This document shows positions 6,067-61,653 of a stretch of DNA of 64,000 nucleotides, piece after piece. The stretch covers positions 6,944,001 to 7,008,000 of the forward strand of contig OZ024756.1 of the NCBI GenBank assembly GCA_964016885.1, given 5' to 3'. The notes beneath the pieces are model-generated. The model saw only the letters and a list, made by a program, of their open reading frames with translations. It was not told the DNA's origin and did not search any database. The stretch is from Eledone cirrhosa. Taxonomy: Eukaryota. Every line of letters begins with the position of its first letter. Within the stretch, counting starts at the first letter, position 1. Position numbers and translations under genes: made by a program.

Positions 6067-6121
6067 TTTCATGAAGTTAGACGTTTCTAACATAAACTTT
6101 CAGTTGCTTCATCAGATGAAA
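6067..6121 (-). ncRNA. Minimal type I hammerhead ribozyme fold, slightly degenerate
   Basis: Reverse complement: TTCAT CTGATGA AGCAACTGAAAGTTTATGTTA GAAA CGTCTAACT TC ATGAA. Stem I TTCAT/ATGAA; stem III has one mismatch. Confidence 0.55.
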
Positions 6122-6523
6122 TATTTATCCGATTATATACATGTATATATATATATACATGCATACATATATATATATATATATATATATATATATATAT
6201 ACACACATCCATACATGCATGCACACATATATATATAAATATATATAGAGAAACACACATACATATACACACATATATACATATATATATATATACAGTA
6301 TATATATACATATACGCATATATATATACGTATACATACATATATACATATATAATTATATACATACATATATACATATATATAGACACATATATATATA
6401 TATATACATATAGAGAATTAGTACATCTACCAACATATGTGGACAGATGTACACCCATGCTGGCAAATAGATATGTTATGTCTTAGTACCTTTGTGGTTC
6501 TATGCAGGGGGATGCAGAACAAT

Positions 6524-6908
6524 TATATGAAAGACGTAAAATAAGAAAATTTTTAAAATTAAAAATCAACTTACTTACTAAAATTTTCACTCCAACTAAT
6601 TAGTCACGTGATTGATTCTTTAGAATCTGCCACTGACCAGAGGCAGTGAATTTTTTCAGTGCTCTGGAATTTAGTCCTCGCTAGCTTTATTCCATCCACT
6701 GAATTATTATTTTTATATGGGTTCCTAGTGTCTGCGCATCGCCTGGGAAGTTAGCTGAGAATAGACTCCCGATTGACGTAAGGGATTCTCTATAGTTATA
6801 TTACGTAACTATATTTATCCCCTTACAGAAACTAATTAGTTGGAGTGAAAATTTTAGTAAGTTGATTTTTAATTTTAAAAATTTTCTTATTTTACGTCTT
6901 TCATATAT
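6524..6908. mobile_element. Foldback element with ~80-bp inverted arms beside (TA)n; second family member at 51150-51500
   Basis: 6524-6604 is the reverse complement of 6831-6908 (GAAAGACGTAAAATAAGAAAAT...ACTAATTAGT). The interior is homologous to 51205-51500. Confidence 0.8.
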
Positions 6909-6982
6909 ATATACATATACATATATATATATATATACACACACACACATACACACACAAATATATACATATATATACATAG

Positions 6983-7456
6983 CTTAAGATCGGTGTGGAA
7001 GTCGGACCTTAGTAAAGACCTGAAAATCCGCCTCTTCATTGCTGTAGTGGAGTCTGTGCTGCTGAGACTTGGACACTGACCAAGAAACTCACTCAGATGG
7101 TGGATGGGTGCTACATGAGAATGCTGAGGATGGCTCTGAACATTAATCAGTATACACTGAGGATGAAAAACTCAGAGCTGTATTGGAGCATCCCATAAGT
7201 CAGCTCAAAAGTGACACAGAGGAGTTTGAGGTTAACTGGACATGCTCACCGATATTCAGAGTTGACATTGCACTCAGTGCGCCTGTGTGAGCCCCTACAC
7301 GGACACACTGGAAGAGGAAGACCAAGGTTAACGTATGTTGATGCCCTAAGGACAGACACTGGTCTGTTGGAGACGCAGGACATGGCAGCGATAATGAGGG
7401 ACAGAGACGACTGGAGAGAACTCGTCCATGGGTGTCGGGAATTTTACCCGCCCTAG
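6983..7456 (+). mobile_element. 5'-truncated RTE-clade non-LTR retrotransposon 3' end
   Basis: Translates to an RT C-terminal region (LRLTGHAHRYSE...GRGRPRLTYVDALRTDTGL...RDRDDWR), ending CCCGCCCTAGA before microsatellite. Confidence 0.85.
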
Positions 7457-59248: not shown

Positions 59249-59639
59249 ATATATATATATATATATATATATATATATATATATATATATATATATATAT
59301 ATATATATATATAAATATATATATATATATATATATATATATATATATATATATATATATATATATAATTATATATTCGTGTACAGATATTTTTGCATAC
59401 ACAATAATAAAATATAAGTATTTATTTCGCGATAAAGTATTGATTTTCTTCGCACGAAAAAAAAACCCTGGTAATCTATGACGAAATGTTTTTATAAGCA
59501 CAGAGAGAATGAGAGAGAGAGAGAGAGAGAGAGGTGGGGGGGGATAATGTGCAACAGAAATGAAACATGGATTACAGTTTAAAATATATTCTAGCTAGAT
59601 GAGAAACAAAACGAGGATGTAGTTTATGGAACACCCAAA

Positions 59640-60085
59640 TGATTTAGAAATCGACCTTAAGTAGGAGCAATAACATTAAGAAAGACATGAACGACACCAC
59701 AACACTATGTTTTGAAGATTTTGAAAGTAGGTTTATAAGTATGAATTTTCATAAGAATTTCGTAGTTGTCTCTGTGGCTTAGTGGTAGACGGTGGAGATC
59801 CTGGCTTTGGGTTCAATGATGCTCAAGAGGTACGTGTAAACTTTTCCAGTTTTTATTTTACAACCCATAGAAAAAATTGAAAAGGTTTACTGGGAAACTA
59901 CTCCCGACCAGGATCACAACCGTCTATGTTTCCGCCAACTAGGCCACCGAGACAGCTACAAAAGTATAATGAAAGTTGATAATTATAAACCTACTTTAAA
60001 AATCGAAGTTAAAAAGATGTGCTGTCGTTCATGGCTTTCCTAGAGCTATTACTAATATTTAGGGTTGACTTCTGGTCATTGTTGA
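59640..60085. repeat. Diverged foldback/MITE-like element with a tRNA-like inner arm
   Basis: Mirrored blocks GTAGGTTTATAA/TTATAAACCTAC, CATGAACGACA/TGTCGTTCATG and GTCTCTGTGGCTTAGT/ACTAGGCCACCGAGAC. Confidence 0.65.
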
Positions 60086-61133
60086 AAGACTCTGGATTTC
60101 ACAAAATACATAATATTTTTATTGGAGAAGGTAAAATATTTTCCGGCAAAAGTTTAATTGCAAAGTTTTCTTTCCACTTAGATATTTTTCGAAATTGTTA
60201 TTTATTCATTATAAAAATTAAATGATAGCATTTTATATGTAGGTTGGTCCCCTTCATCTCATGGCAACCAATATTTTTAGACCCTGTCCGCCACTGCATA
60301 CATATATATAAATACACACATACACACACACACACATATATATATATATATATATATATATATATATATATATATATATATATATATATATATATATATA
60401 TATATATATATAGTGGTAGAACACTGGAAGGTAATATGCGTAGTGGTAGAGAACTCAGTCCATGGGACAAGTTAGGTAGAAGTGGTTACATAACAGTTAG
60501 TTCACCAATTGTTCTCGGTATGGTGAACTAACTGTTGTGTAACCACTTCTATATATATATATATATATATATATAACGAAGGAAGTTTGGTAAGAAACCA
60601 GATGGACCATAACGCACCAGAGTACTCAATACTTAGGGTAGTAGAGTGGGTAATAGACCCGACGGCAGAGACAAGCCGTCGAAACGGCTTGAGCTCTGCC
60701 GTTGGGGTGGTCAAACATATTCCTATATATATATATATATATATATTTACAAATATTATTTCAGCGAGATCGTATTTCGGCAGTGGCCAGAAAACAAAAC
60801 GAAACGCAATCTTCGAGATATGTGGCAAGCGCTCAATGGACTAAAAGAAGACCAGAGCAATTAACATACGTTATAGAGGCCAGACAAAATGAAAACAGTG
60901 GTCGTAAAGCCATCAGCCACCGGAGCCAAAAAACGAAGCAAGCTAAACAGGTTAACAAAAGAATGAATTCATATATATATCTATAAATCTATAATATACG
61001 TATATGTATATATATAAGGTCCTGGGCTGTATATATATATATATATATATATATACTATATATAGAGTTATAAACTCAAATAGTCTTTTACAATTAAATA
61101 GCTCAAAGAAAGAGATATTTCTGAGCCGTGAAA

Positions 61134-61653
61134 TACAAAATTAATATATGATAAACACTAATACAAGTATATAAATGTTTGTATTGCAAAGGACCAAGTT
61201 AGCTAGATTGAAAAATACTAATTAAATTAATACAGTTTGCCTGTCTGGAATCAATAGTGCCATAAATCAATAGTCCCATAAATCAATAGTCCCATAAAAA
61301 CGGCTGCTATTTCTGGCGGCACACTGGGACACCATGTGCGTTCAACAACACATTTCTCTCAGTCTTCCTAAGTATTTTGAAGTGAAACATACCAATTTCT
61401 GGATACCTGCAGCTGAGCACAGAAATGGAATTTTCACTTATTGTTACGAAACAGATTTGAGTTTTGAAATTTAAATTTGTACAGGTATCACGGCTATTGC
61501 CAATATGGGTTTGTTTTAATGATTTATTATTTTAAATCGAGACAGGTAAACTGTATTAATTTAATTAGTATTTTTCAATCTAGCTAACTTGGTCATTTGC
61601 AATACAAACACTTATATACTTGTATTAGTGTTTATCATATATTAATTTTGTAT
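61134..61653. repeat. Foldback element, ~115-bp arms and ~290-bp spacer, ending at (TA)n
   Basis: 61134-61248 is the reverse complement of 61540-61653. Confidence 0.85.

Follow-up and report, generated by a model that had tools for sequence, protein, structure and literature searches.

Hammerhead-bearing ends of Penelope-like elements and likely retrozymes in (TA)n tracts of Eledone cirrhosa

Penelope-like elements (PLEs) are known to carry hammerhead ribozymes, and opposite-strand hammerhead pairs, tails, inverted arms and the targeting of (TA)n by the Hydra clade have all been published (PMC4209133, PMC8557442, PMC3846280), as have retrozymes (PMC7229834). The Hydra clade includes the (TA)n-inserting Hydra-1_Obim of Octopus bimaculoides, and CxxC and CxH motifs around the conserved E and N residues are among its features (PMC8557442). 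During insertion, the PLE protein nicks and extends both strands, starting at two internal RNA sites, and the gap between these sites is the tail (PMC11167929). Which enzyme moves animal retrozymes, that of long interspersed nuclear elements (LINEs) or that of PLEs, was left open in PMC7229834; the Li 2026 preprint has since reasoned from their co-occurrence and from similarities between sequences. Here we analyze 64,000 nucleotides of the genome of the octopod Eledone cirrhosa (assembly GCA_964016885.1, contig OZ024756.1, forward-strand positions 6,944,001 to 7,008,000; this whole stretch is the window, and coordinates count from its first letter), in which short repeat families, A to I, sit at (TA)n runs and carry hammerhead folds or parts of them.

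We consider it very probable that A and B are the 3' ends of Hydra-clade PLEs and E that of a Neptune-type PLE, with C, G and H likely being non-autonomous retrozymes placed in (TA)n by the same enzymes. A first-pass annotation of the window had proposed that many TA-targeting PLE lineages yield short, often palindromic hammerhead insertions, which our analysis supports; parent reading frames were found for A, B and E. It had also treated the insertions as one class of fold-back mini-retroelements. This does not hold: the palindromes of A, B and E read as 5'-truncated, inverted products of full-length PLEs, and the mini-elements are the tandem families C, G and H.

Hammerhead folds in the window and in a genome-wide sample

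Type I hammerheads were sought with a descriptor that requires both core boxes (CUGANGA and GAAA), an NUH triplet, at least four pairs in stem I and at least three in stem II, and that tolerates a bulge or mismatch at the stem II base. The window contains 14 intact-core folds, compared with a mean of 0.095 and a maximum of 2 in 200 local dinucleotide shuffles that kept microsatellites in place. Eight of these folds belong to family A, two to D, and one each to C, E, G (18224) and H (51370). All six families have CUGANGA, GAAA, NUH and stems I-III, and the stems are paired even in copies picked on core and spacing alone. Degenerate copies lie at 32903 (C) and 16207 (D) and at 6115, 14932 and 55861. 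The stem I starts previously given for A (9172, 17955, 19444, 36094 and 59140), C (12622), D (22754) and E (56308), and the fold at 18224, are confirmed; the intact fold at 51370 had been missed, and the earlier figure of more than 15 folds is reached only if degenerate copies are included.

To guard against selection bias, we sampled 59 stretches of 10 kb at fixed spacing (589.8 kb in total) with a slightly wider descriptor. This grid contains 77 folds, against a mean of 5.3 in 10 shuffles. A (TA)5 tract lies within 200 nt downstream of the predicted cut in 55 of the 63 folds away from stretch ends, compared with 19.8% of 5,488 random positions. Excess over shuffled sequence and enrichment next to (TA)n, two of the checks that the first-pass annotation had suggested for its proposal, are both found. 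Extrapolation with background correction gives 364,000 folds in the 3.0-Gb genome (bootstrap 237,000-501,000). The window, once thought to be of very high density, is near the genome norm, at about 1.7 times the average (14 versus 8.4 folds per 64 kb); its GC content is 33%, and it has about 3,700 (TA)5+ tracts per Mb versus 3,627 per Mb in the genome. An inverted copy lies upstream within 1.5 kb of 29 of 62 grid folds, so that about half, rather than most, are arranged as inverted repeats. Stem III has a short self-complementary insert in 41 of the 77. At least 20 further hammerhead families occur in the 590-kb grid, many with the stem I of family A and other stems II and III. An estimate from the flanks of fetched loci (114 folds in 462 kb) was dropped as biased and as including duplicates.

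Could the folds be chance matches in AT-rich palindromic DNA? A relaxed descriptor gives about 5 false matches per 590 kb, and the listed Rfam matches include no hammerhead. However, the excess over shuffles in both window and grid runs against this idea, and one architecture recurs in dozens of families, at a strand-specific place just upstream of the 3' end and with the features of published Hydra hammerheads. The chance explanation is refuted statistically, and we assign it a negligible probability. The hammerheads are real as sequence; their cleavage and expression are predictions.

Families A, B and E and their parent elements

Window repeats were mapped by masked self-BLAST. The copies of family A are as follows.

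56829..59245, plus strand: long A copy, the 3' end of a Hydra-clade PLE, with an endonuclease C-terminus (57960-58148), a 3' untranslated region (UTR) of about 1.1 kb and a core at 59148; its 5' inverted arm has a tail of about 87 nt and a minus-strand core at 57012
17657..18062, unstranded: head-to-head A fold-back with intact folds in both arms (17842 minus, 17963 plus) and the tail on the left arm
35872..36290, unstranded: A fold-back with folds at 35954 (minus, shortened stem II) and 36102 (plus) and the tail on the right arm
8989..9271, plus strand: A copy with a fold at 9180 and a short inverted arm with tail
19286..19545, plus strand: A copy with a fold at 19452, its inverted part being tail only

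In the long copy, CxxC and CxH flank the conserved E and N of the frame at 57960-58148, which confirms the earlier report that A joins a GIY-YIG-type remnant at 57.9 kb. The parent of A, at locus L071, has an open frame of 760 amino acids with RW and DKT motifs, the reverse transcriptase (RT) catalytic motif, a CxCX5C linker and GIY-YIG, and the A 3' UTR and ribozyme follow directly downstream. By the motifs read from its translation (RT with RW and DK, CxCX5C, CxxC/CxH, no CCHH), A is a Hydra-clade PLE. A Pfam search of the A protein gave no match, and a homologue search for RT placement returned 39 proteins, none of them a named PLE reference. Between its RT and endonuclease, the protein (L071, 3210-5489) also contains a long insert rich in asparagine, a feature reported from rotifer Penelopes (PMC3846280).

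Copies of A stop at either of two sites about 87 nt apart. Their 5' ends vary, and 33 of 78 arms begin in one 17-nt window at a 6-bp palindrome; among loci fetched without an A query, 8 of 16 arms begin at the same hot spot. As lower bounds, first-look candidates for A number 919 at the DNA level and 33,471 at the protein level (endonuclease piece).

Family B was recorded in the window as follows.

15892..16083, unstranded: B fold-back with arms of about 55 nt and a tail of about 78 nt, holding only the 3' half of the ribozyme
51721..51912, unstranded: B fold-back found by masked self-BLAST
44436-44614 and 60576-60708: other B fold-backs
35775-35831 and 38571-38635: B fragments

The hammerhead claimed for B therefore stands in the window as a 3' half; the 5' half is absent there, and the full set of type I features is not found. 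As seen in a relative, the 5' half has mostly a U3-A8 core, a long stem II, a 5-bp stem III and a GUC triplet. The 5'-half pattern has 1,899 genomic matches and a 31-mer of the 3' half has 22,044 exact matches, a ratio that is only rough because the two patterns differ. Our first guess for the 5' half, with a perfect stem II, gave one irrelevant match only. Subfamilies vary at core positions 3 and 8, with U-A the commonest and C-A, U-G and C-G also seen; the C-A subfamily is numerous, though it would be expected to break the 3-8 pair. The parent of B is a second Hydra-clade PLE with DKN and RWR motifs, and its protein is 35% identical to that of A, so that the description of the families as unrelated in sequence is only partly right. 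One B locus, L344, contains the full tandem of two pseudo-long terminal repeats (pLTRs) around the open frame, and its tail extends in the direction of the reading frame, which is also the case for the anole element of PMC11167929. Among 73 B arms in loci fetched without a B query, 41 fold back in loop II and 26 are otherwise truncated; the remaining 6 were flagged with a core upstream and include a duplicate locus and loose matches.

Family E and a related element at 13.6 kb are Neptune-type by motifs read by eye from translations, namely RT, a CX2-5CxxC linker and GIY-YIG with CCHH.

55912..56516, plus strand: E, the 3' UTR end of a young Neptune-type PLE, with a minimal fold at 56313 and an inverted arm with tail at 55912-56118
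13541..15229, plus strand: 5'-truncated Neptune-type PLE related to E, with an open frame at 13608-14669 and a tail

The parent of E has an open frame of 730 amino acids with RT, a CX4CX2C linker and GIY-YIG; Pfam returns RVT_1 and GIY-YIG at an E-value of 2.8e-4, both below the curated cut-off, and the same search of the 13.6-kb frame gave no match. The link between the two that the first-pass annotation had drawn is well founded, with 62% amino acid identity over 340 residues and a 3' terminus common to both. The 13.6-kb element has a minimal fold at 14932, whose stem I is only 2 bp, and an inverted 3' terminus at its 5' end. E is young, 44 of the 46 matches listed being identical over 144 nt. 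Between the arms of the E insertion, at 56151-56256, lies a piece of family A (endonuclease end plus 3' UTR), and the long A copy starts 600 bp away; this arrangement suggests a template switch between two PLE RNAs.

In its strong form, the earlier proposal makes the fold-back palindromes (about 430 bp in A, 190 bp in B and 180 bp in D) self-propagating mini-retroelements that are transcribed and re-copied as units. Stereotyped sizes, high copy number (as for the B 31-mer), the A hot spot and a few B centres that recur, up to 6 times in 26 loci, would fit. However, B centres fall into 14 classes in these 26 loci, which argues for fresh formation at each insertion. The tail can be on either arm, the arms grade continuously into full-length parents, and the most stereotyped palindrome, that of B, usually lacks the 5' half of the ribozyme. 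Re-copying as units thus appears improbable to us.

A further alternative is that the palindromes are miniature inverted-repeat transposable elements (MITEs) of TA-targeting DNA transposons, which would explain inverted arms with TA on both flanks. But the arms are asymmetric, with neither a constant inner border nor a constant spacer, and they represent the 3' ends of elements that encode RT and endonuclease. The first-pass annotation had rightly warned against the MITE label, as the tail on one arm, the variable centre and the continuity with RT frames indicate. Parent reading frames rule it out for A, B and E, and for the palindromes in general we see hardly any chance of it.

Tandem families C, G and H, and families D, F and I

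C, G and H differ from the families above in their tandem nature, which had previously gone unrecognised.

12381..12931, plus strand: C, part of a 420-bp tandem retrozyme unit, with a fold at 12627 and a short inverted 5' arm, stopping at the tail end
32748..33094, minus strand: degenerate C copy with a mutated GAAA box, core at 32903
18094..18495, plus strand: G (18224), most of a 484-bp tandem retrozyme unit, with a fold at 18230 and a long stem II
51205..51496, plus strand: H, part of a 530-bp tandem retrozyme unit, with a fold at 51370; a degenerate relative lies at 6530-6901

The monomers of C, G and H (about 420, 484 and 530 bp) have a GC content of 35-37% and one fold each, and their longest ATG frames encode 59, 46 and 66 amino acids. 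Upstream of the ribozyme lies the tail of the preceding unit and no reading frame. Leaving out window loci and duplicates, more than one unit is present at 23 of 24 C, 7 of 18 G and 12 of 17 H loci; since these loci were the top matches of queries that contain the ribozyme, long copies are over-represented in the fractions. Most loci have 1-2.5 units and are dispersed over many contigs. The C core pattern has 24,157 exact genomic matches, in tandem and inverted tandem arrays, and G, taken for a singleton at 18224, proves to be a large family (1129 first-look candidates). Circular folding energies of the units were compared with mononucleotide shuffles, a weak control.

Units of this kind, which are short and non-coding, follow one another head to tail and each contain a single type I hammerhead, have the sequence characters of retrozymes without long terminal repeats (non-LTR retrozymes). 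Each family also has two fixed 3' ends 60-115 nt apart, both running into (TA)n, and inverted 5' arms occur at 6 of 25 C, 4 of 20 G and 7 of 20 H loci. PLE protein matches fall within six C loci and may be separate from C. Judged from these sequences, C, G and H are likely to be non-autonomous retrozymes copied into (TA)n by PLE enzymes. They might instead be satellites that arose from a PLE terminus and then multiplied locally through unequal crossover, as considered in bioRxiv 10.64898/2026.07.22.740005. Some arrays are indeed long (7.6 and 4.3 units, and C runs of 5-8), but most loci are short and dispersed, end at either of the two fixed (TA)n sites and often have inverted 5' arms. We find the satellite scenario decidedly unlikely.

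The families D, F and I are represented by the following copies.

22628..22810, unstranded: D fold-back with intact folds at 22747 (minus) and 22760 (plus) and the tail on the left arm; a degenerate copy lies at 16099-16267
34817..34882, plus strand: F 3' end of PLE type, with two ends and a tail; others at 34288-34390, 56693-56747, 21580-21659 and 44644-44797
5958..6135, minus strand: I (6067), a degenerate member of a hammerhead family that has two 3' ends

D has 4,164 genomic matches, a U-U pair at the stem II base and a subfamily with a common 5' extension of at least 577 nt, in which a reading frame was sought and not found. Its stem I shows compensatory changes at two pairs, with a covariation score reached by 0 of 500 shuffles (alignment of 33 of the 53 distinct D rows). 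F had been listed as a hammerhead at 34816. It is a real repeat and no valid ribozyme: core position 4 is A, no partner for stem I could be identified, and 7 of 57 matches have lost the GAAA box. The supposed singleton at 6067 belongs to family I (476 first-look candidates); the window copy has a decayed stem II, and complete folds can be read in other members of the family.

Additional fold-back palindromes that lie between TA runs and lack an intact hammerhead in the window occur at 20476-20647, 20723-20819, 21842-22236, 33657-33950, 36353-36559, 59646-60073, 60479-60549 and 61138-61648. Some of these adjoin known hammerhead families at other loci and probably represent additional PLE ends. 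The window also contains a satellite array at 452-3302 (62-bp unit, 46 copies, 97% matches), a short-unit tandem array at 37620-38490 with an open frame on the minus strand, and about 18 copies of an abundant SINE-like (short interspersed nuclear element) repeat of about 200 bp (10661-11146, 17235-17467, 20817-20998, 23328-23508, 50065-51072, 54162-54372, 55581-55782 and others), in which ARAGORN found no transfer RNA. LINE 3' ends at 7126-7903, where two copies lie tail to tail around a TA-rich centre, and at 33965-34227 also adjoin (TA)n; we take them to have an RTE-like C-terminus. Broken reading frames on the minus strand at 30355-31500 presumably derive from a non-LTR retrotransposon with a restriction-like endonuclease.

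Insertion anatomy and relation to known systems

Families A-H have two 3' ends each, running into (TA)n, and variable 5' ends. The signature of PLE insertion is present, with an optional tail, an inverted 5'-truncated arm and a pLTR tandem, the last in L344. Read by eye, 8 of 9 short ends show an overlap of 3-5 nt between the TA run and the sequence with which the element itself would continue. An overlap of at least 3 nt is expected at 23% of positions (P ~5e-5, the families being partly dependent and the null built on seven of them, without A and F). The long ends of B, C and H overlap TA too, and that of G is ambiguous. This overlap fits priming by short pairing, and it also fits an endonuclease that cuts at TA steps inside the element.

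These observations suggest a model for how the insertions form. The GIY-YIG endonuclease would nick both strands of a (TA)n tract, and reverse transcription would begin at two fixed positions within the RNA, separated by 60-115 nt, each of which shares a short stretch of TA with the target. The cDNAs made from the two opposite nicks, or a single cDNA that snaps back, would then be joined where a short palindrome or a hairpin loop occurs, and the product would be an asymmetric palindrome whose tail lies on one arm. RNA structure may set the fold-back hot spots, which in A lie about 125 nt upstream of the predicted cut, in B in loop II of the ribozyme and in D in stem I; if so, the palindromes are likely dead ends. 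The hammerheads are predicted to process tandem precursors, in most cases acting as dimers that pair through a palindromic stem III. In C, G and H, cleavage would release monomers that may circularise and template cDNA of more than unit length. Head-to-head inversions with junction palindromes in rotifers were read as self-priming on an antisense template (PMC3846280). The PLE ribozyme depended on protein, and insertion in vitro did not require the ribozyme (PMC11167929).

Several observations weigh against our interpretation. Rfam, the search recommended by the first-pass annotation, lists no hammerhead among 150 of the 467 rows for the window, and three focused scans returned no hammerhead, only microsatellite-driven microRNA noise. 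Single-sequence minimum-energy folding gives a full hammerhead for G and, largely, for A and C only; the E, D, H, 6067 and 14932 copies fold otherwise or partly. Minimal hammerheads cleaved weakly (PMC4209133), and 8 of 9 Xenopus dimers did not cleave (Li 2026 preprint). The anole PLE began reverse transcription in vitro at sites non-homologous to the target, with no need of ribozyme cleavage (PMC11167929). C, G and H have no nucleotide similarity to the 3' regions of A, E and the 13.6-kb element (best E-value 0.089). Parent frames, another check proposed at the outset and successful for A, B and E, were sought for D and I and not found. The D covariation concerns two pairs in related subfamilies, and its pair counts stood no higher than those of shuffles (346 and 413 of 500). 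The PLE link of F is a single locus, L178, with a Hydra-like endonuclease end about 1 kb upstream, and the long end of I mostly adjoins CA-rich sequence, running into TA in 2 of 9 cases.

A broader claim, which we advance tentatively and at somewhat less than even confidence, is that this genome is the richest hammerhead repository so far (about 360,000). In this claim, C, G and H would be circular-RNA retrozymes with a PLE fingerprint at every insertion, giving direct genomic evidence that PLE enzymes mobilise animal retrozymes, and Hydra and Neptune PLEs would prime twin cDNAs by 3-5-nt TA pairing at two fixed RNA sites, joined at RNA hairpins. Insertion anatomy tests the retrozyme mobiliser independently, and in this genome the result favours PLEs. 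With thousands of junctions that are very young, the PLE tail and inversion mechanism becomes measurable. Because the repeats escape Rfam, standard annotation would overlook a large part of the 3-Gb genome that bears ribozymes. A 2026 curated octopus repeat paper (PMC13282606) reports active Penelope families, and the word 'ribozyme' is absent from its main text. Our literature search, which covered few subscription papers, found nothing on retrozymes in cephalopods, on retrozymes with ends of PLE type or on an overlap with TA where PLEs start; we did not find in print these ends, the short overlaps or the scale, which is possibly a record.

A and B resemble the Hydra-clade PLEs of PMC8557442 in their C-terminal GIY-YIG, RW/DK, CxCX5C and CxxC/CxH motifs, (TA)n targeting, 3' hammerhead, inverted 5'-truncated arm and tail. 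The U-U pair at the stem II base of C and D is likewise seen in many Hydra hammerheads listed there. Here, however, the 3' UTRs are longer (about 1.1 kb in A), the tails are 60-115 nt compared with 30-40 bp, stem II is long, B has a U3-A8 core, and fragments number in the tens of thousands. Compared by eye, the listed Hydra-1_Obim hammerhead matches none of our families. E and the 13.6-kb element share with the Neptune clade a single frame running from RT through a CX2-5CxxC linker to GIY-YIG with CCHH, and microsatellite targeting; E further shares a minimal hammerhead, a bulged base after A9 and a long stem II. The stem III insert of E differs in being an imperfect palindrome, and the assignment to Neptune rather than Nematis is provisional, being based on motifs. 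Dispersed single folds, pairs that truncated PLEs leave on opposite strands at distances of 100-700 bp, a palindromic stem III and the U3-A8 variant all recall the minimal PLE hammerheads of PMC4209133.

C, G and H are like metazoan non-LTR retrozymes (PMC7229834; Li 2026 preprint) in that the units are short, low in GC and non-coding, lie head to tail, contain a single type I hammerhead and co-occur with PLEs; the U-U pair at the stem II base, seen in C, is also that of axolotl HHR_Amex2. They differ in unit length (420-530 bp versus a published range of about 170-450) and in strict (TA)n targeting, and also in their two fixed 3' ends, tail and inverted 5' arms, none of which is described in the passages of these two sources. 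Non-autonomous PLEs of Chlamys such as MRC1 (PMC8557442) are also non-coding, head-to-tail and PLE-mobilised, but their 3' ends are similar to those of their parents and most of them have no hammerhead, whereas C, G and H are unlike the three parents tested. In number, the 240,000-500,000 folds extrapolated here compare with about 9,000 in Xenopus and 126,247 in axolotl, counted with different descriptors. Taken together, these comparisons describe a real genome-wide feature of known kinds, in which the probable TA-targeted retrozymes with PLE ends are new.

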